NCBI GenBank assembly: GCA_003598025.1
Contig: QZKH01000003.1
Span: 42,048 to 106,047 of the forward strand
DNA length: 64,000 bases
Origin: Candidatus Omnitrophota bacterium
GTDB lineage: Bacteria; Omnitrophota; Gorgyraeia; Gygaellales; Profunditerraquicolaceae
Direction of reading: 5' to 3'
Part shown: positions 3,894 to 62,855 of the stretch, one piece after another
Numbering within the stretch: the stretch's first letter is position 1
Layout: each line of letters begins with the position of its first letter
Translations under genes and position numbers: made by a program
The notes under the pieces: model-generated
The model's input: only the letters and a program-made list of their open reading frames with translations
The model's database searches: none
Told to the model about the DNA's origin: nothing

Positions 3894-4610
3894 ATGCTTA
3901 AGCTGGGAGTTAATGTTGATCATGTAGCGACAATCAGGCAGGCAAGAGGCGGTTGTTATCCTGACCCGGTTAATGCAGGGCTCATATGCGAGTCATCCGG
4001 GGCAGATAGCATAGTCGCGCATTTAAGAGAAGACAGAAGACACATTCAGGAGAGAGACCTGTTCCTTTTAAGGAAGTTGTTACGCACCAGGCTTAATCTT
4101 GAGATGTCTTGCTCTGATGAAATTGTGCGGGTGGCTCTTAAGGTTTTGCCTGACCAGGCGACTTTAGTCCCGGAAAAGAGGCAGGAGTTAACCACTGAAG
4201 GCGGGCTTGATGTGCTGGCTAATATGCCGCAGGTCATAAAAGCCTGTAGAGCGCTTAAGAATAAGAATATTGATGTAAGCATCTTTCTTGACCCCGATAA
4301 AAAACAAATTGATGCTTCTAAAAAGATCGGGGTTAAGATGATTGAATTGCATACGGGCAGGTTTGCCAATAGCCGCAATAAACAGCAGTACAATAAAAAT
4401 TTTTTAGAATTGAAAAAGGCTGCGCGTTATGCCGCAAAATGCGGCTTGCGGGTTTTTGCAGGGCATGGTTTGAATTATGATAACGTCCCGGATATAGTTA
4501 AGATAAAAGAGATCGAAGAGTTAAACATAGGCCATGCTATTATTTCCCGGGCTCTGTTCGTCGGGCTTCGGTACGCGGTAACAGAGATGAAAAATTTGAT
4601 AAAGAGATGA
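3894..4610 (+). CDS. pdxJ: Pyridoxine 5'-phosphate synthase. Start chosen at MLKLGVNVDH. The track ORF begins at 3849.
   Basis: LGVNVDHVATIRQARG N-terminal signature of the PdxJ TIM barrel. Conserved pdxJ-acpS adjacency. Confidence 0.85.
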   Translation: MLKLGVNVDHVATIRQARGGCYPDPVNAGLICESSGADSIVAHLREDRRHIQERDLFLLRKLLRTRLNLEMSCSDEIVRVALKVLPDQATLVPEKRQELTTEGGLDVLANMPQVIKACRALKNKNIDVSIFLDPDKKQIDASKKIGVKMIELHTGRFANSRNKQQYNKNFLELKKAARYAAKCGLRVFAGHGLNYDNVPDIVKIKEIEELNIGHAIISRALFVGLRYAVTEMKNLIKR

Positions 4611-5900: not shown

Positions 5901-6027
5901 TAAATGAGGCCACAACTTATGGAGCAAATGAAATGAGCGAACATAAGTTGTTTGGCCGAATTTATCCCGAGTGTACGAAGCAGATTTATTGAAATCTGCG
6001 AGTGCTTACACGAGGGATGTAAAATGA

Positions 6028-6110
6028 TAGTTCATAGTTGATAGTTCATTGTTCATGGATATTGGTATATTTCTATGAACCTTGAACCATGAACTAATAT
6101 GATATGAACA
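6028..6110. repeat. Family-A palindromic repeat element. Left arm of GTTCATAG-type units, right arm of CTATGAAC/CATGAAC units.
   Basis: tagttcatagttgatagttcattgttcatgg ... ctatgaaccttgaaccatgaactaatatgatatgaac. Same architecture as the copies at 36109, 51739, 53418, 57776, 57938 and 59371. Confidence 0.75.
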
Positions 6111-6231
6111 CCCGAACCGAAAGGGGTGTGGGGAATTTCCCCACGTTGTCGGGGTGACAGCGAACATAGTGAGCGCCATAGGGGCAGAGCCCCTATGGAG
6201 AGCGAGCGGTGATTGAAGACTTGGCGAGCGA

Positions 6232-6262
6232 GGGTCGGGGGTTCGATTCCTCTCGCCGGCTT
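6232..6262 (+). repeat. 31-nt direct repeat of the 3' end of tRNA-Thr (T-arm plus acceptor 3' strand). Partner copy at 5871-5901.
   Basis: GGGTCGGGGGTTCGATTCCTCTCGCCGGCTT is identical at both sites. 330 bp of non-coding, hairpin-rich DNA lies between them. No upstream 5' acceptor strand, so this is not a second tRNA. Confidence 0.8.
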
Positions 6263-6263
6263 T

Positions 6264-6334
6264 ACAAAGTCACCAAGTCACAAGGACACACGTCACAAGT
6301 TTATGTGACGTTGTGACTTTGTGTCATTGTGACA
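6264..6334. repeat. Family-B palindromic repeat element. Left arm of GTCACAAG/GACACA units, right arm of TGTGAC/CTTTGTG units.
   Basis: caaagtcaccaagtcacaaggacacacgtcacaag ttta tgtgacgttgtgactttgtgtcattgtgac. Confidence 0.75.
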
Positions 6335-11076: not shown

Positions 11077-11430
11077 ATGGAATTCAAGGGGCCGGAAAAA
11101 AGAAAGACGCCTAGGATAGCCGGAAGATTTATTGTCTCTTACAGGATTTTAGAGGAAAATAATAATGTCGATATCTCGCAAACTAAGAATTTGAGTATGG
11201 GCGGCATGCTTCTGACTACTAACAGGCACTTCGATGTTGGCACTAATATCGCTCTGGAAATCCGTCTTCCATTTGATCCCAACCCGATTATGCTTATCGC
11301 CAAGGTCATGGAATCCAGGGAGATTACCAAAGATTTGATATATGATACCAGGCTTGCCTTTCTGGCCGTGGATGAAAGACACAGAAAAATAATAAATGAA
11401 ACAGTGGATTACTATATAAAGAAAGGTTAG
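11077..11430 (+). CDS. Stand-alone PilZ-domain protein
   Basis: RKTPRIAGR (RxxxR) and NLSMGGMLL (DxSxGG-like) motifs. 117 aa. Confidence 0.6.
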   Translation: MEFKGPEKRKTPRIAGRFIVSYRILEENNNVDISQTKNLSMGGMLLTTNRHFDVGTNIALEIRLPFDPNPIMLIAKVMESREITKDLIYDTRLAFLAVDERHRKIINETVDYYIKKG

Positions 11431-11432
11431 TT

Positions 11433-12728
11433 ATGAAGAAGATAAATGTTGGCCTGATAGGTTTCGGCAATGTCGGCTCGGGAGTAGTAAAGATCCTTAA
11501 AGACAGAAGAAGCCTGCTGAGCGAGAAAATCGGCATAGAGATTAACATTAAGAAAATATGCGATAAGGATATTTCTTCAAAGAGAAATATAAAAGTAGAT
11601 AAATCTCTTTTGACTTCTAATGTCAAGGAGGTCATCAGTGATCCCCAGGTTGATATTATCGTTGAGCTTGTTGGAGGAATCCATCCGGCTAAGGAATTTG
11701 TCATTGAGGCTTTAAAGAATGGCAAGAATATCGTTACTGCCAATAAAGCATTATTGGCTGAAAACGGGTTAGAGCTATTTACTCTCGCTAAAGATAAGGG
11801 AAAAAATATTTATTTTGAAGCTTCAGTCGGAGCAGGTATCCCGATTATTAAATCTTTGCGTGAAGGCCTGGTAGCAAACAGGTTCAGCAGGATATTTGGT
11901 ATAGTAAACGGTACATCCAACTTCATTCTTTCGCAGATGTCTGATAGCAGCTGTAGTTTTGGCGCTGCTTTAGCCGAGGCCAAGAAGAGAGGCTTTGCCG
12001 AGAGTGATCCTACTCTTGACATAGAGGGGATTGATTCTGCCCATAAGCTTGTATTGCTTACATATTTGTCTTTCGGCAAATTTGTTGATATGGGTAATGT
12101 TTTTATAGAAGGGATATCCAGGATATCTTCTTGGGATGTTAAATATGCTAAGGAACTTGGGTTTGAAATCAAATTACTTGCTATTGCAAAAAAAGAAGGC
12201 TCGCAGTTGGAGACCAGGGTGCATCCTACGTTTATACCCAGAGAACATCTTTTATCGTCAGTAAGAAGTGTTTTTAATGCTATATATGTCTCTTCTGACC
12301 TTGCCGGAGACCTTCTTTTCTACGGCCCCGGCGCAGGGCAGTTCTCGGCGGCGTCTGCGGTTGTTTCTGATTTAGTGGATTTAACCCAGGATATTAAAGC
12401 CGGAATGTTCAGGCCTATACTAAATACTGTAGTCGATAAGAGCATAAGTTCATTAAGGAGTATAGACGATATTGAGAGCCGTTATTACATACGTTTTATG
12501 GCTATGGATAAGCCCGGGGTGCTGGCAAAGATTTCCGGAATTCTGGCCAGGTTCGGCATAAGTATTGCATCTGTCAGCCAGAAGGCTGAAGCAAAAGCTC
12601 AAATTGTTCCGGTAGTAATAATTGTCCATAATGCAAAAGAGAAAAATCTTAAGGCCGCATTAAAGGCTATAGATAAACTTGATTCTGTAAAACCTGAGTC
12701 AGTAGCGATAAGGATTGAAGATTTATGA
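11433..12728 (+). CDS. hom: Homoserine dehydrogenase with a C-terminal ACT domain
   Basis: VGLIGFGNVGSGV NAD-binding site and the homoserine dehydrogenase catalytic region. 431 aa. Confidence 0.9.
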   Translation: MKKINVGLIGFGNVGSGVVKILKDRRSLLSEKIGIEINIKKICDKDISSKRNIKVDKSLLTSNVKEVISDPQVDIIVELVGGIHPAKEFVIEALKNGKNIVTANKALLAENGLELFTLAKDKGKNIYFEASVGAGIPIIKSLREGLVANRFSRIFGIVNGTSNFILSQMSDSSCSFGAALAEAKKRGFAESDPTLDIEGIDSAHKLVLLTYLSFGKFVDMGNVFIEGISRISSWDVKYAKELGFEIKLLAIAKKEGSQLETRVHPTFIPREHLLSSVRSVFNAIYVSSDLAGDLLFYGPGAGQFSAASAVVSDLVDLTQDIKAGMFRPILNTVVDKSISSLRSIDDIESRYYIRFMAMDKPGVLAKISGILARFGISIASVSQKAEAKAQIVPVVIIVHNAKEKNLKAALKAIDKLDSVKPESVAIRIEDL

Positions 12729-20143: not shown

Positions 20144-22945
20144 ATGGCTATAGAGCTTTCAAAGCAGTATAATCCTCACGAAGTTGAGGACAAATGGTAT
20201 TTTGACTGGGAAAAAAACGGGTATTTTAAAACCTCCCCGTCTAAGAACAGAATCCCTTTTTGTATAGTTATCCCTCCGCCTAATGTGACGGGTATTTTGC
20301 ACATGGGGCATGCTTTAAATAATACGATACAAGATATTCTTATCCGGTACCACCGCATGAATGGCGAGGCTGCTCTATGGATGCCGGGCACAGATCATGC
20401 CGGCATTGCTACTCAGAACGTCGTTGAAAAAAGTTTGGCAAGGGAGAATATTAAACGCCAGGATTTAGGCAGGGAAAAGTTTATTGAAAAAGTGTTATTA
20501 TGGAAAGACAAATACGGCTCTACGATAATTCATCAGCTTAAGAAACTGGGTGCTTCCTGTGATTGGTCAAGGGAGCGTTTTACTATGGATGAAGCGTATT
20601 CCAGGGCGGTAAAACATGTATTTGTGCGTTTGTGGGACAAGGGGCTTATTTATCAAGGGGATAAGATAATTAACTGGTGTCCTCGCTGCCAGACAGCTTT
20701 ATCTGATGAAGAAGCACCGCATCATGAACTTGATGGTCATCTTTATTATTTGAAATATCCTTTGAAGGCCGATCCTGATACTTTCATTATTGTGGCTACT
20801 ACCAGGCCGGAAACAATGCTTGGAGATACAGCCGTCGCAGTTAACCCCAGGGATAAAAGATATAAAAAATTCTTGAATAAAATCCTGTTATTGCCTTTGG
20901 TTGGCAGGGAGATAAAAGTAATCGGCGATAGTTCAGTGGATATGAAATTCGGAACCGGTGCTGTAAAAGTTACACCTGCCCATGATCCGAATGACTATAT
21001 AATGGGCAATAGGCATAAACTGAAATTTGTAAATGTTATGTATCCGGATGGCCGGATGAATGAGAATGCCGGAGAGTATAAGGGTATGGATAGGTTTGAG
21101 GCACGGGAAGTGATTATAGAAGACCTCAGAGAAAAAGGATTACTGGATAAAATAGAGCCACATGCGCTTTCTGCCGGGCATTGTTATCGTTGCCACACTA
21201 TAATTGAACCGTATCTTTCAAGGCAATGGTTCGTTAAGATGTCCCCTTTGGCAAAACCGGCAATAGAAGCTGTGAAAAAAGGTAAAATCAAATTCCATCC
21301 TAAAAGATGGACTAAGGTATATCTTAACTGGATGGAAAATATACAGGATTGGTGTATTTCACGGCAGATATGGTGGGGGCATCGCCTGCCGGTATATTAT
21401 TGTAAGGAATGTATAAAGAATGCCGGCGAGTTCACGGTTCATAGTTCACAGTTCACAGGTAAGAATAAAGCCGGTATTATAGTTTCTGAAACTAAGCTGG
21501 ATAAATGTCCTAAGTGCGGTTCATCGGATATACATCAGGAAGAAGATGTTTTAGATACATGGTTTTCTTCCTGGCTATGGCCTTTTGCTACTTTTTATTG
21601 GCCGGATTTTCAAAAGCAATCAGCCATCAGCCATCAGCCATCAGCTTTCAGCTCTCAGCTGGATAGTCTACAGTCTACCGTGCACAGTCCACCGTCCACA
21701 GACAAAGATATTTCTGCCAGGCTCAAGGCGGATTTGGATTATTTTTATCCTACATCCACTCTTGTAACTGCACCTGAGATTATCTTCTTTTGGGTAGCCA
21801 GAATGATTATGGCGGGCATGGAGTTTATGCATAATGTCCCCTTTAAGGATGTTTACATCCATGGCACAGTGCGCGATATAGAAGGCAAGAAAATGTCTAA
21901 ATCCCTGGGTAATATTATAGACCCGCTTGAGATTATAAGCCAGTACGGTGCTGATGCCCTTCGCTTTAGCCTCATATCGATTACTTCTCAGGGGCAGGAT
22001 GTATATCTTTCTAAGGACAGGTTCGAGCAGGGCAGGAATTTCGCGAATAAGCTTTGGAATGCATCGCGTTTTATACTGATGAATATGGAAGAGGCAGACT
22101 CAGGCAAAGTTAACCAAATACGTCAAAACAGCACTAATATCGTAAATAAATGGATATTAAGCAGGTACAATTCCACAATAAAACAGGTTTCATCTTATCT
22201 TAATGCATATAAATTTAATGAAGCGGCAAATGCTATTTACGGTTTCTTCTGGCACGAGTTTTGTGATTGGTATCTTGAGATTATAAAGCCGAATATAAAA
22301 GATGATGAAAGCCGGGTAATTACGCGTATTATCCTTGAGGGTACCCTTAAAATGCTGCATCCTTTCATGCCTTTTATAAGCGAAGAAATATGGCGGATGA
22401 TCCCCGGTAATACTTCTACTATAATGTTTAGCAGCTGGCCGGTTCATTCTGAGAAAGCAATAGACAAAAAGATAGAGGCCCGGGTTAATATGGTCTTTGA
22501 TGTGATTAGCAGCATAAGGAATATGCGTTCCGAGCTTGAAATAGCAGTAACTGATAAAATAAATGTTAAACTTTTTACCGGCAGCAAGCCGAATTTGGAA
22601 ACGCTTAATTTTATGAGCGGAGACATCAAATTAATGTCAAAGCTGGATAATCTCGAGATCTCTAAAGATTATAAGCCTCAGATTAACCAATATGCAAGCG
22701 TCCTAAAGGATATCCATATAATAATCCCATTGTCCGGAGTTATTGATGTAGAGAAATACCTGCTTAAACTGGGTAAGCGTATCCAGGAAGTTTCATCCCA
22801 GATTGAAGCAAAGGGCAGGACATTGGAAAATAAGGATTTTATCGCACGGGCACCAGCAGAAGTCATAAAGAAAGAACAGGATAAATTAGAAGAACTTAAA
22901 GAAACCCTGAACAAACTAAAGGTGGTGAAAGATGGTATTAAATGA
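20144..22945 (+). CDS. valS: Valine--tRNA ligase. Intact ORF that contains two in-frame short-repeat insertions.
   Basis: HMGH, KMSKS, DVLDTWFSS, FFWVARM. C-terminal coiled coil. 933 aa. Confidence 0.9.
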   Translation: MAIELSKQYNPHEVEDKWYFDWEKNGYFKTSPSKNRIPFCIVIPPPNVTGILHMGHALNNTIQDILIRYHRMNGEAALWMPGTDHAGIATQNVVEKSLARENIKRQDLGREKFIEKVLLWKDKYGSTIIHQLKKLGASCDWSRERFTMDEAYSRAVKHVFVRLWDKGLIYQGDKIINWCPRCQTALSDEEAPHHELDGHLYYLKYPLKADPDTFIIVATTRPETMLGDTAVAVNPRDKRYKKFLNKILLLPLVGREIKVIGDSSVDMKFGTGAVKVTPAHDPNDYIMGNRHKLKFVNVMYPDGRMNENAGEYKGMDRFEAREVIIEDLREKGLLDKIEPHALSAGHCYRCHTIIEPYLSRQWFVKMSPLAKPAIEAVKKGKIKFHPKRWTKVYLNWMENIQDWCISRQIWWGHRLPVYYCKECIKNAGEFTVHSSQFTGKNKAGIIVSETKLDKCPKCGSSDIHQEEDVLDTWFSSWLWPFATFYWPDFQKQSAISHQPSAFSSQLDSLQSTVHSPPSTDKDISARLKADLDYFYPTSTLVTAPEIIFFWVARMIMAGMEFMHNVPFKDVYIHGTVRDIEGKKMSKSLGNIIDPLEIISQYGADALRFSLISITSQGQDVYLSKDRFEQGRNFANKLWNASRFILMNMEEADSGKVNQIRQNSTNIVNKWILSRYNSTIKQVSSYLNAYKFNEAANAIYGFFWHEFCDWYLEIIKPNIKDDESRVITRIILEGTLKMLHPFMPFISEEIWRMIPGNTSTIMFSSWPVHSEKAIDKKIEARVNMVFDVISSIRNMRSELEIAVTDKINVKLFTGSKPNLETLNFMSGDIKLMSKLDNLEISKDYKPQINQYASVLKDIHIIIPLSGVIDVEKYLLKLGKRIQEVSSQIEAKGRTLENKDFIARAPAEVIKKEQDKLEELKETLNKLKVVKDGIK
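21428..21459 (+). repeat. Family-A octamer tandem (GTTCACGG GTTCATAG TTCACAG TTCACAGG) lying inside the valS coding sequence
   Basis: gagttcacggttcatagttcacagttcacagg is translated in frame as EFTVHSSQFTG. Confidence 0.8.
21618..21662 (+). repeat. CAGCCAT x3 / CAGCTTTCAGCTCTCAGCTG tandem repeat inside valS. Related in reverse complement to 47042-47074.
   Basis: atcagccatcagccatcagccatcagctttcagctctcagctgg encodes SAISHQPSAFSSQLD. This stretch is absent from canonical ValRS between WP(E/D) and FYPTS. Confidence 0.8.
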
Positions 22946-32494: not shown

Positions 32495-32632
32495 AGATTC
32501 ATAGTTGATTATTCATAGCTGAAGTCACAAAGACACCAGTCACAAAGACACAAAATTATTGATTTTTATTTTAGTTTTGTACGTTTATTTGTGACCTTGT
32601 GACATTGTGGCGTGTGTCCCATATAAACGTAT
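32495..32632. repeat. Composite repeat locus. Short family-A units followed by a family-B palindrome with an AT-rich centre.
   Basis: attcatagttgattattcatag then gtcacaaagacaccagtcacaaagacacaa ... gtgaccttgtgacattgtggcgtgtgtcc. Confidence 0.7.
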
Positions 32633-36086: not shown

Positions 36087-36108
36087 ACATTAATGGCATA
36101 AGTAGATT

Positions 36109-36388
36109 AGTTCATGGTTCATAGTTCACGGTTCACAGAATAGCGTTTACCAGTTGAATAGTTGGTTCGTTGAACCGAAGAAGCCTGGATTAACGAATAA
36201 ACTATTAAACGAATCAACGATTTAACTATGCTTTTCTTGTGATTTTGCGACCTTAGGCCTTCGACACTGCTCAGGCCGAGGGAGTCCTGAGCGTTTTATG
36301 GTGAGTGAAGTCGAACCAAGCCGAAGGATGTCTTTGTGACTAGATACTCTTCATGTCTATGAACTATGCTCTATGAACTGTGAACCAG
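36109..36388. repeat. Large palindromic family-A element. GTTCA-unit arm at 36109-36138 and TGAAC-unit arm at 36356-36388, enclosing about 215 bp of structured sequence.
   Basis: agttcatggttcatagttcacggttcacag ... ctatgaactatgctctatgaactgtgaaccag. The interior contains a family-B unit gtctttgtgac. Confidence 0.65.
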
Positions 36389-36421
36389 CCTACTTTACCT
36401 ACTAACTAATCCATTTTTTTG

Positions 36422-36450
36422 TTGACATCGTAACTTTCTGTTGGTATTAT
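36422..36450 (+). promoter_or_regulatory. Sigma-70-type promoter for hup (TTGACA, 17 nt, TATTAT)
   Basis: ttgaca at 36422-36427, tattat at 36445-36450. Confidence 0.65.
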
Positions 36451-36508
36451 ACTTATAAACATAACGGGCTAATTTAAAGGCTGCGTTCTTGTTTAAAAGG
36501 GGGAACAG

Positions 36509-36781
36509 ATGACAAAAAAAGATATTATTTTAAGAATATCCGATGAGACCAACATCAAACAGATTGCGGTAAAAAAGGTCGTCCAAAAGACCTTTGACTA
36601 TATTATTGAAGCTCTGATAAGAGGAGAAAAGATAGAGCTGCGTAACTTCGGTGTTTTTAAGATAAAACAAAGAAAAAGCCGTACCGGAAGGAACCCTCGT
36701 ACAGGCCAGGTAGTCCCCGTCCCTCCAAGAAAAGTGGTCATTTTTAAACCAGGCCTTGAAATGAAAAAGAAGGTTATTTAA
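36509..36781 (+). CDS. hup: HU/IHF family nucleoid-associated DNA-binding protein
   Basis: RNFGVFKIKQRKSRTGRNPRTGQVVPVPPRKVVIFKPG beta-arm. 90 aa. Confidence 0.9.
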   Translation: MTKKDIILRISDETNIKQIAVKKVVQKTFDYIIEALIRGEKIELRNFGVFKIKQRKSRTGRNPRTGQVVPVPPRKVVIFKPGLEMKKKVI

Positions 36782-36802
36782 ATTTTCCCCCTCTCCTAAG
36801 AT

Positions 36803-46975: not shown

Positions 46976-47041
46976 AAGCAGCTCATAACTAATATCGAGC
47001 ATCGAGAATCTCTTAGTCTACAGTTAACGGGCCACACAGTA

Positions 47042-47185
47042 TGGCTGATAGCTGAGAGCGGATAGCTGAAAGCTGCATTTGTTCACAGTTCATGGTTCAT
47101 AGAAATGACTAGAGTAGTTAGTCACAAAGACACACGACACAAGGACACAAAAATCTTGAGTTCACTATTCACATTTCACGGATTG
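47042..47185. repeat. Composite repeat locus: GGCTGATAGCTGAGAGCGGATAGCTGAAAGCTG (reverse complement of the valS 21618 repeat), then family-A octamers, then the family-B left arm, then TTCAC units
   Basis: ggctgatagctgagagcggatagctgaaagctg catttgttcacagttcatggttcatag ... gtcacaaagacacacgacacaaggacacaa ... gagttcactattcacatttcacgg. Confidence 0.75.
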
Positions 47186-51738: not shown

Positions 51739-51848
51739 GTTCACTGTATTGGTTCATAGTTCATTGTTCATAGTTCATAGAGCTGTCCTTACGTCCATGA
51801 ACTCTGAACTAATCTATGAACTTTGAACCATCAACCATGAACTAATAA
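51739..51848. repeat. Family-A palindromic element filling the whole nfnB-panB spacer
   Basis: GTTCATAGTTCATTGTTCATAGTTCATAGAGCTGTCCTTACGTCCATGAAC. This ~50-nt core is identical to 59374-59423. Confidence 0.8.
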
Positions 51849-53419: not shown

Positions 53420-53546
53420 TTCATACATTAGTTCATTGTTCATAGTTAATAGTTTATAGAAATATGCCATCTATCCATGAACTTTGAACTATGATCTATG
53501 AACCAATAAATCCATGAACTTTGAACCTTCAACCGTGAACTAATAT
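53418..53546. repeat. Family-A palindromic element, divergent copy
   Basis: gttcatacattagttcattgttcatagttaatag ... ccatgaactttgaactatgatctatgaacc ... catgaactttgaaccttcaaccgtgaactaat. Confidence 0.75.
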
Positions 53547-54906: not shown

Positions 54907-54972
54907 GGTCACAAGGACACAAGACACAAGGACACAAAAAACTGTGACTTTGTGACGTGTGACTTTGTGACT
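54907..54972. repeat. Family-B palindromic element
   Basis: gtcacaaggacacaagacacaaggacacaa aaaac tgtgactttgtgacgtgtgactttgtgac. Confidence 0.8.
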
Positions 54973-57775: not shown

Positions 57776-57850
57776 TAGTTCATTGTTCGTAGTTCATAGG
57801 GTCGTCCTTAGTCCATGAACCATGAACTAATCTATGGATTATGAACCGAT
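57776..57850. repeat. Family-A palindromic element, upstream flank of tRNA-Arg
   Basis: tagttcattgttcgtagttcatag ggtcgtccttagtc catgaaccatgaactaatctatggattatgaac. Confidence 0.75.
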
Positions 57851-57857
57851 TGATTGC

Positions 57858-57931
57858 GCCCCTGTAGCTCATAAGGATAGAGCAACGGTTTCCTAAACCG
57901 TGTGCGGCAGGTTCGATTCCTGCCAGGGGCA
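57858..57931 (+). tRNA. tRNA-Arg (anticodon CCU)
   Basis: Acceptor GCCCCTG/CAGGGGC, anticodon stem ACGGT/ACCGT with loop TTCCTAA, T-arm GCAGGTTCGATTCCTGC. 74 nt. Confidence 0.8.
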
Positions 57932-57937
57932 GTTTAC

Positions 57938-58030
57938 TTAGTTCATAGAGCTGTCCATACGTCCATGAACTATCAACCATGAACCTTGAACTAATCTATA
58001 AACCTTGAACCATCAACCATGAACTAATCT
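57938..58030. repeat. Family-A palindromic element, downstream flank of tRNA-Arg. Ends at the sigma-factor ATG.
   Basis: ttagttcatagagctgtccatacgtccatgaactatcaaccatgaaccttgaactaatctataaaccttgaaccatcaaccatgaactaatct then ATG. Confidence 0.75.
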
Positions 58031-58849: not shown

Positions 58850-59370
58850 GCGGGGAATTTGATTTTAAGAAATATATCCGAGACATTCCCGATTTTCCCA
58901 AAAAAGGGATAATCTTTAAAGATATAACCACGCTTTTAAAAGATAAGAAAGCCTTTAAGGCGGCCGTAGAAATTATCGCCGATAAATTTAAGGGTAAAAA
59001 AATAGATATTGTTATGGCTGTTGAATCAAGAGGTTTTATCTTAGGGGCAGCTGTTGCCAACCGGCTTAATGCCGGCTTTGTCCCTGTCCGCAAAAAAGGC
59101 AAGCTTCCGTGGCAGACGATATCTGCAAGTTATGAGCTTGAATACGGCACGGATACGCTTGAGGTGCACAAAGATGCCTTAAAGAAGGGCGACAGAGTCT
59201 TATTAGTCGATGATTTAATAGCTACAGGCGGGACTGCCGGAGCGGTTATAGATTTAATTAAGCAGCTTGAAGGCAAGATCTGCGGTATTGCTTTTTTGAT
59301 TGAGTTGGCTTTTCTTAACGGAAAAGAAAAACTTAAAGGGTATCCGGTTTATTCTTTGATTAAATATTGA
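58846..59370 (+). CDS. apt: Adenine phosphoribosyltransferase
   Basis: DFPKKGIIFKDIT and the PRPP site VLLVDDLIATGGT. 174 aa. Confidence 0.9.
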   Translation: MSGEFDFKKYIRDIPDFPKKGIIFKDITTLLKDKKAFKAAVEIIADKFKGKKIDIVMAVESRGFILGAAVANRLNAGFVPVRKKGKLPWQTISASYELEYGTDTLEVHKDALKKGDRVLLVDDLIATGGTAGAVIDLIKQLEGKICGIAFLIELAFLNGKEKLKGYPVYSLIKY

Positions 59371-59483
59371 GTGTTCATAGTTCATTGTTCATAGTTCATA
59401 GAGCTGTCCTTACGTCCATGAACCTTGAACCATCAATTATGAACTAATCTATGAACCTTGAACTACCAACCATGAACTAATCC
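59371..59483. repeat. Family-A palindromic element. Its last unit supplies the ATG of the next gene.
   Basis: gtgttcatagttcattgttcatagttcatagagctgtccttacgtccatgaaccttgaacc...catgaactaatccATG. Confidence 0.8.
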
Positions 59484-62317: not shown

Positions 62318-62324
62318 ATTACCA

Positions 62325-62355
62325 CGTCACAAAGTCACACGTCACAAAGTCACAA
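62325..62355. repeat. Family-B left arm, immediately upstream of the four-helix-bundle gene
   Basis: cgtcacaaagtcacacgtcacaaagtcacaa. Confidence 0.8.
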
Positions 62356-62357
62356 TT

Positions 62358-62711
62358 ATGGATAAAGGATACAAAAAACTTTTAGTTTGGCAGAAGGCAG
62401 ATGAATTAGCTTTACAAATTTATCTTGAGACAAAGCGATTCCCTAAAGATGAAATATATGGTGTTACTTCCCAATTAAGAAGAGCGGCTATCTCTGTCCC
62501 CACCAATATCGCTGAAGGCTCAGGTAGGCAAAACAAATCAGAATCTAAACAATTCATAAATATTTCTTTAGGCTCTTTAGCCGAAACCGAGTATTTATTA
62601 GAATTCTGTTTCCGTCTTAAATACTTAGATGAAGAAAATTTTAATAGGTTAGAAGAATTACGGAATGATGTTGGCGCCTTACTTTGGAATCTTTATAAAA
62701 GCTTTACGTAA
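62358..62711 (+). CDS. Four-helix-bundle protein of the 23S rRNA intervening-sequence protein family
   Basis: 117 aa. Typical LLVWQKA...L...Y..T..FPK.E.YGLTSQLRRAA.S...NIAEG N-terminal pattern of that family. Confidence 0.7.
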   Translation: MDKGYKKLLVWQKADELALQIYLETKRFPKDEIYGVTSQLRRAAISVPTNIAEGSGRQNKSESKQFINISLGSLAETEYLLEFCFRLKYLDEENFNRLEELRNDVGALLWNLYKSFT

Positions 62712-62781
62712 AAGTAAAATAAGTTGTTTCTTTTTGCTTTTGTGACCAGCTGCTTTTGAATAGTCAATCGTTTTCTTAACT

Positions 62782-62813
62782 TTTGTGTCCTTGTGACCTT
62801 GTGTCCTTGTGAC
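62782..62813. repeat. Family-B right arm (inverted partner of 62325-62355), downstream of the four-helix-bundle gene
   Basis: tttgtgtccttgtgaccttgtgtccttgtgac. Confidence 0.8.
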
Positions 62814-62855
62814 CCATTACTTTATAGTATGCTATATCTCTCTTTTATCTTCCAC

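Follow-up and report, generated by a model that had tools for sequence, protein, structure and literature searches.

In a 64,000-nucleotide stretch of DNA from a Candidatus Omnitrophota bacterium (contig QZKH01000003.1, positions 42,048 to 106,047 of the forward strand; hereafter the window), the valS gene for valyl-tRNA synthetase (ValRS) carries two in-frame segments built from repeat families that are also dispersed between the genes around it. Repeat DNA occupies the same two sites in the valS genes of many other Omnitrophota, and its turnover at both sites is fast. We consider it likely that dispersed hairpin repeats repeatedly colonise two permissive loops of ValRS, where they would be translated and tolerated. 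Here, we describe the gene, the two insertion sites and the repeats found in them, then compare them with the intergenic copies of the window and with orthologues, and finally weigh the proposed explanation against its rivals and against known repeat systems.

The gene is an intact open reading frame (ORF) at 20144-22945 on the + strand and encodes 933 amino acids (aa). Its translation contains a HIGH-type motif (HMGH) and a KMSKS motif, HMMER aligns it with the Thermus thermophilus ValRS (1GAX) across residues 4-925 (E 6e-222), and a Foldseek search with a predicted structure of the protein returns 1GAX as top match (E 1e-58). The product is, in addition, 100% identical to an annotated valine--tRNA ligase (P0001) of a Candidatus Omnitrophota metagenome-assembled genome (MAG), in which the Pfam domains PF00133, PF08264 and PF10458 are recognised; the identical protein is on record from two contigs and sources, on contigs of up to 567 kb. 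The 1GAX match and the identical annotated protein bear out the first-pass annotation of this DNA, which had been made from the letters alone and had called the ORF valS with a length of 933 aa. Judged by its full-length match, catalytic motifs and domains, the product can be regarded as a bona fide class Ia valyl-tRNA synthetase.

Both segments are extra when compared with ValRS of other bacteria. The outgroup consisted of 150 sequences, 77 from species-representative genomes and 73 from metagenomes, and its genome-contig part was collected by an over-general pattern scan and derives mostly from other phyla. At site 2, the spacing between DTWFSS and FYPT is 25 aa in 145 of the 150 sequences but 63 aa in the window, so that about 38 aa (residues 488-529) are added at a nearly invariant position. 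At site 1, the spacing between WWGH and DTWF has a median of 42 aa in the other bacteria as opposed to 61 aa in the window, and relative to the common Omnitrophota form about 13 aa (429-441) are added in the loop between conserved CxxC pairs. The HMMER alignment to 1GAX falls into two blocks with a break at residues 488/530, and it has gaps at 424-444. On the DNA, the site 1 insertion (E429-N441, EFTVHSSQFTGKN) corresponds to 21428-21466 (+) and lies inside a Cys4 knuckle, separating its two CxxC pairs, and the site 2 insertion (D488-A529, 42 aa replacing the canonical 4) corresponds to 21605-21731 (+) and lies between WP and DLxYFYP. That the second insertion sits between WP and FYPT, where canonical ValRS has no such stretch, had been noted before and is confirmed by 1GAX and the 150 sequences. 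The accompanying expectation that the insertions would map to the catalytic/anticodon-stem junction is not supported, as both sites fall within the Rossmann-fold catalytic core, in its second half, site 1 being the one of the two that lies inside the Cys4 knuckle. An AlphaFold model was built from a 120-sequence multiple sequence alignment (mean predicted local distance difference test score (pLDDT) 75, predicted template modelling score 0.71); a model based on 31 sequences (pLDDT 64) was too poor and was not used. In the model, residues 429-441 and 489-531 have a pLDDT below 50 and are predicted as coil, and these are exactly the inserts; elsewhere the model agrees with 1GAX.

At the DNA level, the two segments are composed of tandem heptamers, for which periods were called with Tandem Repeats Finder (TRF). 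Site 1 contains a 5' arm of the repeat family termed A here, GTTCAYN x4.3 (21429-21458, +; TRF unit AGTTCAC), followed by an A-rich loop remnant. Site 2 is more complex: its element has a 5' arm formed by a family-C array, TCAGCYN x6.5 (21615-21660, +), which TRF reports as AGCCATC x4.4 running on as TCAGCTC up to 21660; directly 3' of it follows a family-D array, AGTCYAC x5.3 (21665-21701, +; TRF unit AGTCCAC); and further on lies a degenerate reverse family-C arm, GCCAGGCTCAAGGCGGATTTGGAT (approximately 21716-21740, +; peptide ARLKADL), which aligns with the AGCCGAAAGCTGAAAGCTGAATTAGCC arm of orthologues, namely the 3' arm of the valS elements in loci L082 and L083. The predicted peptides are EFTVHSSQFTG at site 1 and (Q)SAISHQPSAFSSQLD at site 2, and tryptic peptides such as QSAISHQPSAFSSQLDSLQSTVHSPPSTDK would be expected across the inserts. 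The strings and translations quoted in the first-pass annotation were found where it had placed them, and the second insertion that it described is real; its extent, on the other hand, had been drawn too small, with the family-D array and the reverse arm overlooked. Its description of the units as octamers has to be given up, since the period is 7 in three of three arrays; genuine octamer arrays (GTCACAAN) do occur in the window, outside valS. The copies in the window's valS are half-elements that no longer fold: site 1 matches the 5' arm and A-rich loop of the element in L081 with the 3' arm absent, and RNA folding gives z-scores of 0.0 (site 1) and -2.1 (site 2), which rules out a hairpin in the window's own valS mRNA. 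Site 1 is flanked 5' by AAGAATGCCGG and 3' by AAGAATAAAGCCGG (21416-21476), a possible short duplication that is probably fortuitous because orthologues do not show it.

Outside valS, all arrays of the window are confined to its 9% of non-coding DNA, and their number is far above chance. With up to one mismatch, GTTCANNGTTCANNGTTCA has 23 matches as compared to 0.00 expected, and TCAGCNNTCAGCNNTCAGC has 8 as compared to 0.10 when up to two mismatches are allowed; period-7 arrays were observed nine times versus 0.4 in codon-block shuffles and period-8 arrays three times versus 0.1. The intergenic arrays are arranged as inverted pairs, either (GTTCATN)n - loop - (NATGAAC)n or the octamer form (GTCACAAN)n/(NTTGTGAC)n, and they fold as long imperfect hairpins located directly after stop codons or around tRNA genes. 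A family-A hairpin, (GTTCATN)4 - loop - (NATGAAC)n, is found at 51749-51845 (+), with sister copies at 6024-6097, 36107-36138/36364-36385, 53429-53540, 57776-57835, 57950-58026 and 59370-59483. The octamer hairpins form family B, (CACAAGGA)n/(TGTGACTT)n, represented at 54910-54972 (+) and by sister copies at 6262-6334, 32522-32613, 47123-47151 and 62323-62355/62781-62815. The arrays in valS share with the intergenic copies both the families and the order of unit variants (ATGAAC..TGAAC..TCAAC..TGAAC, and AGCYGA at unit 3), and the intergenic family-A elements can be aligned with site 1 over their 5' arm. For site 2, the counterpart is an intergenic composite at 47016-47102 (+), made up of a D-like array, a reverse family-C array (47044-47077), which is the reverse complement of the TCAGCYN array, and a family-A array (47080-47102). 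The segment just upstream of the family-C match, 47016-47040, is similar to the AGTCYAC array, which makes 47016-47077 collinear with the D+/C- part of site 2. The earlier observation that the reverse complement of the second insertion recurs intergenically beside family-A units is confirmed by the family-C match at 47044-47077 and the GTTCA units at 47080-47102.

The same two sites are occupied in other Omnitrophota. Relatives were taken as the 120 closest ValRS, ranked by similarity to the insert-bearing query; they are 61-69% identical to the window ValRS, measure 874-990 aa, and all named sources are Omnitrophota or Omnitrophica. Sister genomes or strains of the window organism were not found, the best other ValRS being 66% identical and a metagenome scan giving at most 64% identity. 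Differences in length cluster in four indel hot spots, the two largest of which are sites 1 and 2: at least six extra residues are present in 70 and 73 of the 120 relatives, respectively, and site 2 is longest in the window. About one third of the orthologues, including the shortest (874-884 aa), have neither insertion. The DNA of 12 orthologous loci (L081-L090, L171 and L172) was examined, and heptamer arrays or GC palindromes stand at the same two sites in L081-L086, L088-L090, L171 and L172; every insertion in this DNA is repeat DNA, in arrays or palindromes, for all eight insert-bearing relatives read. L081 has (GTTCANN)4...(NNTGAAC)4 and (CAGCTCA)4...(TGAGCTN)4, L082 and L083 have (CAGTCCC)n...(GGGACTG)n and (TCAGCYN)n...(NRGCTGA)n, and L089 has (GCATATC)n...(GCGATAA)n at both sites. 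In L088, one 27-nt GC-rich palindrome with a TTCG loop is present at both sites (11285-11311 and 11462-11488); it reads GGGTCAGWCCCC-TTCG-GGGACAGAYCC and encodes GQ[ST]PSGTDP, and related peptides, 'KGTVP' and 'GQSPSGTDP', are found at these sites in many orthologues. Many copies in orthologues are complete, and these are very stable hairpins (RNA fold z -6.9 to -9.5); the L084 copy does not fold (z +1.6). In all four testable loci (the window, L081, L089 and L090), the valS families were also found between genes close by on the same contig. With the families shared, the frame intact and the catalytic motifs in place, the central claim of the first-pass annotation, that dispersed repeat units lie in frame in an essential aminoacyl-tRNA synthetase (aaRS) gene, is borne out; and because the DNA of the relatives examined consists of repeat arrays or palindromes at these positions, their extra peptides are not of an origin unrelated to the repeats.

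How quickly the sites change is seen from pairs of closely related genes. P0004 and P0044 are 98.4% identical over 870 core columns, yet repeat units amounting to 51 nt and 36 nt separate them at site 1; their site 2 is occupied by a 135-nt TCAGCYN hairpin in one gene and by a short stretch of octamer type in the other, and up to the junctions the flanks are the same. A 51-nt array is present in one and absent from the other of P0013 and P0077 (95% identical), and P0022 and P0079 (87% identical) likewise differ by presence versus absence. Overall, insert lengths range from 0 to 78 aa, and the observed length differences are multiples of three in every case. The peptide types E[FSL]xVxS at site 1 (19/120) and KLKA[ED]L at site 2 (11/120) occur at scattered places in a neighbour-joining tree built from the cores. 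With peptide types scattered in this way and near-identical genes differing, a single ancient, vertically inherited insertion is unsupported, although it may hold for the 3' module of site 2 discussed below. The locus also differs from a phase-variable contingency locus: 120 of 120 orthologues are in frame, the gene is essential, and the differences are 51 and 36 nt.

The open frame is not a property of the repeats as such. Translated, the intergenic consensus GTTCATA would read TCA-TAG once per three units, that is, an in-frame TAG every 21 nt, and a reverse arm of NATGAAC or NAGCTGA units would read TGA; in seven of ten intergenic elements, each of the three forward phases is interrupted by stops. 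An element consensus that is itself ORF-compatible, a pre-adaptation in the style of the Rickettsia palindromic elements (RPEs), is ruled out by these stops. In the valS copies, the in-phase junction is instead CAG (window and L084), GAG (L081) or AAG (L090), and the in-phase unit of the reverse arm has TCA or CGA in place of TGA. All 120 orthologues are full-length. Because the stop-making units are replaced in phase and 120 ORFs are intact, selection appears to act on the open frame, as opposed to the segments being excised.

Based on these findings, the following model can be proposed. Omnitrophota genomes would hold dispersed hairpin repeats, the arms of which are tandem 7-nt (sometimes 8-nt) units and which normally reside just 3' of genes and around tRNAs. 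Copies of these elements would land in, expand in, be swapped in and be deleted from two loops of ValRS, candidate routes of spread being either transposition or an exchange with dispersed copies by recombination or gene conversion, together with replication slippage. Selection would then retain only stop-free versions with a length that is a multiple of three, and as only such versions persist, the surviving inserts are presumably translated as low-complexity loops. These loops, rich in Ser, Gln, His, Thr and Pro, would probably be disordered, tolerated by the enzyme and close to neutral. The hairpin would erode later, and the segment would finally be lost or overwritten. The window may represent a late, half-eroded stage, with a 5' arm and loop at site 1 and a 5' arm, a second-family array and a decayed 3' arm at site 2. 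The repeats had initially been described as 'tolerated or domesticated'; tolerance is supported, and domestication is not, given that the sites are hypervariable between genes that are 95-98% identical.

The inserts show that a ValRS position that is invariant across bacteria can take up tens of residues of repeat-derived sequence, and the progression from a fresh hairpin through an eroded half-element to an empty site could be used to study how loops are acquired from non-coding DNA. The interest of the system lies in recurrent hot spots across many Omnitrophota lineages and in an insert life cycle that is visible in extant genes. It matters for annotation, since what looks like an error in an Omnitrophota core gene, be it a low-complexity loop or a varying length, may be repeat DNA, and for the quality control of MAGs, because repeat-rich coding regions are assembly-prone.

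Several observations weigh against repeated colonisation of loops that are no more than permissive. The density of arrays is 0.75/kb in valS, which is intergenic-like, versus 0.036/kb in other coding sequences of 11 loci, a sample biased to insert-bearing valS; other coding sequences are thus about 20 times poorer in arrays than valS in the same loci, and the occupancy of roughly 60% in the 120 relatives points the same way. In L083 and L084, arrays are found solely in valS, with none in 20 kb of flanking DNA. This excess is not obviously explained by random insertion and tolerance. Next, the 3' module of site 2 (…SRKLKA[ED]L) matches the enzyme core in its degree of conservation across distant lineages and shows 81-86% nucleotide identity between lineages versus 76-80% in the conserved flanking coding sequence, and a 15-nt block within it, AGCCGAAAGCTGAAA (SRKLK), is identical in four genes despite 5' arms of different families, two of them unfolded. 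The same unit order is retained in an intergenic copy of the window. These features hint at constraint, and the module may be either part of a constrained element family that re-inserts or a domesticated module. As for the means of spread, a clear target-site duplication was not found, AAGAAT..GCCGG being present on both flanks of site 1 and not seen in orthologues, and a Pfam scan of 40 window proteins found neither a transposase nor anything RAYT-like. Finally, what suggests that both inserts are exposed at the surface is the alignment together with the low pLDDT, and some conserved ValRS segments are likewise low in pLDDT.

Two readings that we consider unlikely take up these points. According to the first, the insertions are domesticated or otherwise functional, either because an RNA hairpin acts in cis on the valS mRNA (for instance as a site of RNase III cleavage, or through stability or a pausing of ribosomes) or because a role was gained by the peptide. 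The occupancy of each site and the arrays kept in valS where the 20-kb flanks of L083 and L084 have none would fit such a role, as would the AGCCGAAAGCTGAAA/SRKLK module conserved across distant lineages, the synonymous changes (GCT to GCC or GCA) that break the repeat core yet keep the residue, and the very stable hairpins formed by fresh copies. However, about a third of the orthologues do without either insertion, families, lengths (0-78 aa) and sequences vary even at 95-98% gene identity, the hairpin is lost from the window's own copies, and the inserted residues have a pLDDT below 50. The second reading, to which we give no better chance, is that the loops are preferred landing pads of an Omnitrophota-wide family of heptamer-array hairpins with its own sequence constraint and a targeting or replacement mechanism, that fresh in-frame hairpins act in cis on the mRNA and that the SRKLKA[ED]L module was domesticated. 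The cis action would in this case be, for example, that of RNase III-type processing stems, comparable to the arrays on either side of tRNA-Arg and of other genes in the window, and a coding-compatible mobile RNA-structure element would couple repeat dynamics to the expression of an essential translation enzyme. Both the preference for valS and the conservation of the 3' module are directly testable.

A purely local origin, in which short native motifs in the two loops expanded by slippage independently of the dispersed elements, is less probable still. Differences in unit number between near-identical genes do look slippage-like (L082 versus L085), and heptamer simple sequence repeats (SSRs) are the commonest class of long SSRs in bacteria (PMC4679880). 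Yet valS and the dispersed elements have the architecture of inverted arms in common, intergenic copies show their unit variants in the same order as valS, and in one genome sites 1 and 2 contain an identical 27-nt palindrome. Empty sites, moreover, are without a seed motif: an empty site reads AAG GAG AGC GCG GAT TTA, which rules out seeding of the array by a native GCTGA motif. That the segments are missing from the mature protein through RNA-level excision or bypass, or are an artefact of assembling repeat-rich reads, is scarcely credible, for although repeats are assembly-prone and the hairpins of relatives could in principle be processing substrates, the inserts are multiples of three and stop-free in 120 independently assembled orthologues, stop-making unit variants are replaced exactly at in-phase positions, the identical protein comes from two contigs and sources, and intein or intron signatures are not present; misassembly in particular is unlikely because independent assemblies share the architecture.

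The proposed repeated colonisation of two ValRS loops by hairpin repeats has its closest parallel in RPEs, dispersed palindromes that interrupt many housekeeping genes without loss of frame (Ogata 2000, 2002, via PMC10969869), and the valS case may be viewed as a variant of the RPE phenomenon. RPEs are likewise dispersed palindromic repeats, intergenic as well as in frame in unrelated housekeeping genes, with inserts thought to be translated and tolerated where the fold permits (PMC10969869). In the window, too, the family is dispersed in the same genome, the frame of valS is kept and the position is absent from the ValRS of other bacteria; palindromy is seen in the intergenic copies and in the valS copies of orthologues, those of the window's valS having the z-scores of 0.0 and -2.1 given above. 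RPEs are defined consensus families of about 100-150 bp, each encoding a conserved peptide (PMC10969869), whereas the Omnitrophota arms are 7-nt arrays of variable copy number and do not amount to an ORF-compatible consensus of about 100-150 bp with a conserved peptide. Unlike RPEs, most intergenic copies described here are not ORF-compatible, several families alternate at one site, and one gene is hit recurrently at two fixed sites with rapid turnover.

Other known repeats are more distant. Heptamer SSRs of bacteria include the TAACTGA repeats of Beggiatoaceae, which lie upstream of start codons and have stops in forward orientation (PMC4679880). Similar to cyanobacterial short tandemly repeated repetitive (STRR) sequences and related heptamer SSRs, the Omnitrophota repeats consist of tandem 7-nt units in many dispersed, mostly intergenic arrays; STRR and other heptamer SSRs, however, are described as intergenic direct repeats, while the arrays described here are inverted pairs that form hairpins. 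The host is, furthermore, a Candidatus Omnitrophota and not a cyanobacterium, and the units are GTTCAYN, TCAGCYN and AGTCYAC and not those of STRR1-3. We know of no description of STRR in frame in loops of an essential gene. The CAGTCCC unit of L082 (6355-6465) is a rotation of CCCCAGT, which we take to be the cyanobacterial STRR1 heptamer; the match could reflect either convergence or a shared constraint on heptamer repeats. REP/REPIN sequences and bacterial transposable elements of the miniature inverted-repeat type (MITEs; ERIC, BOX and Correia) resemble the Omnitrophota elements as short non-autonomous hairpins between co-directional genes with occasional in-frame copies (PMC3116915, PMC10969869). 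In contrast to REPs and MITEs, the Omnitrophota elements have an internal heptamer periodicity. Their arms are inverted arrays, and no terminal inverted repeats or clear target-site duplications were identified. Lastly, class Ia aaRSs have lineage-specific insertions, for instance of the CP type, and low-complexity inserts are found in Plasmodium aaRSs. The ValRS inserts resemble such insertions in being extra loop segments of the catalytic core that leave the HIGH/KMSKS motifs and the editing domain intact; class Ia insertions, though, are stable and lineage-wide, whereas the Omnitrophota inserts are recognisable repeat DNA and differ between near-identical genes. A literature search returned no paper connecting Omnitrophota with such repeats.

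Arrays within genes were also seen elsewhere in the orthologous loci. In-frame arrays occur in nadC of L090, where a GGTTCAN array adds 6 aa and an ACCGCAC array replaces a loop (L090 5253-5287 and 5433-5472), and in thrC of L081 an ACGCAAT array (1267-1297) replaces a loop of equal length. Further arrays within valS are located at 7839-7873 in L089 and at 4041-4078 and 4168-4206 in L090. The four other aaRS genes of the window (hisS 36803, aspS/asnS-type 38047, class II gene 53589) are without arrays.

Some of the intergenic copies of the window have conspicuous neighbours. The gene for tRNA-Arg(CCT) (57858-57931) is bracketed by the family-A heptamer hairpins at 57776-57835 and 57950-58026, and 57776-58026 folds as one long stem-enclosed structure with the look of a processing stem. 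After dnaE, a non-coding gap of 716 bp (36087-36802) contains the family-A arms 36107-36138 and 36364-36385, which pair across about 225 nt of GC-rich structured sequence; the gap has no Rfam match even at E<=1 and may be an unannotated small RNA or cargo of the element. Rfam contained no family matching any of the repeats or the bracketed region at 36.1-36.4 kb. A PF05635 gene at 62358-62711, encoding a four-helix protein of the 23S-rRNA-intervening-sequence type, lies between the inverted octamer arrays (GTCACAAA)n (62323-62355) and (TTGTGACC)n (62781-62815), an arrangement that resembles a stem-bracketed cassette. A tRNA-like 3' end, GGGTCGGGGGTTCGATTCCTCTCGCCGGC (approximately 6233-6261, within 6100-6262), is positioned between a family-A hairpin and an octamer hairpin; it is called by neither ARAGORN nor Rfam and could represent either a fragment of a tRNA or a tRNA-like RNA of an unusual kind. 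The window as a whole is 91% coding, with about 52 predicted genes, every one on the + strand, and its GC skew is above 0 in each 2-kb bin from 1 to 64000.

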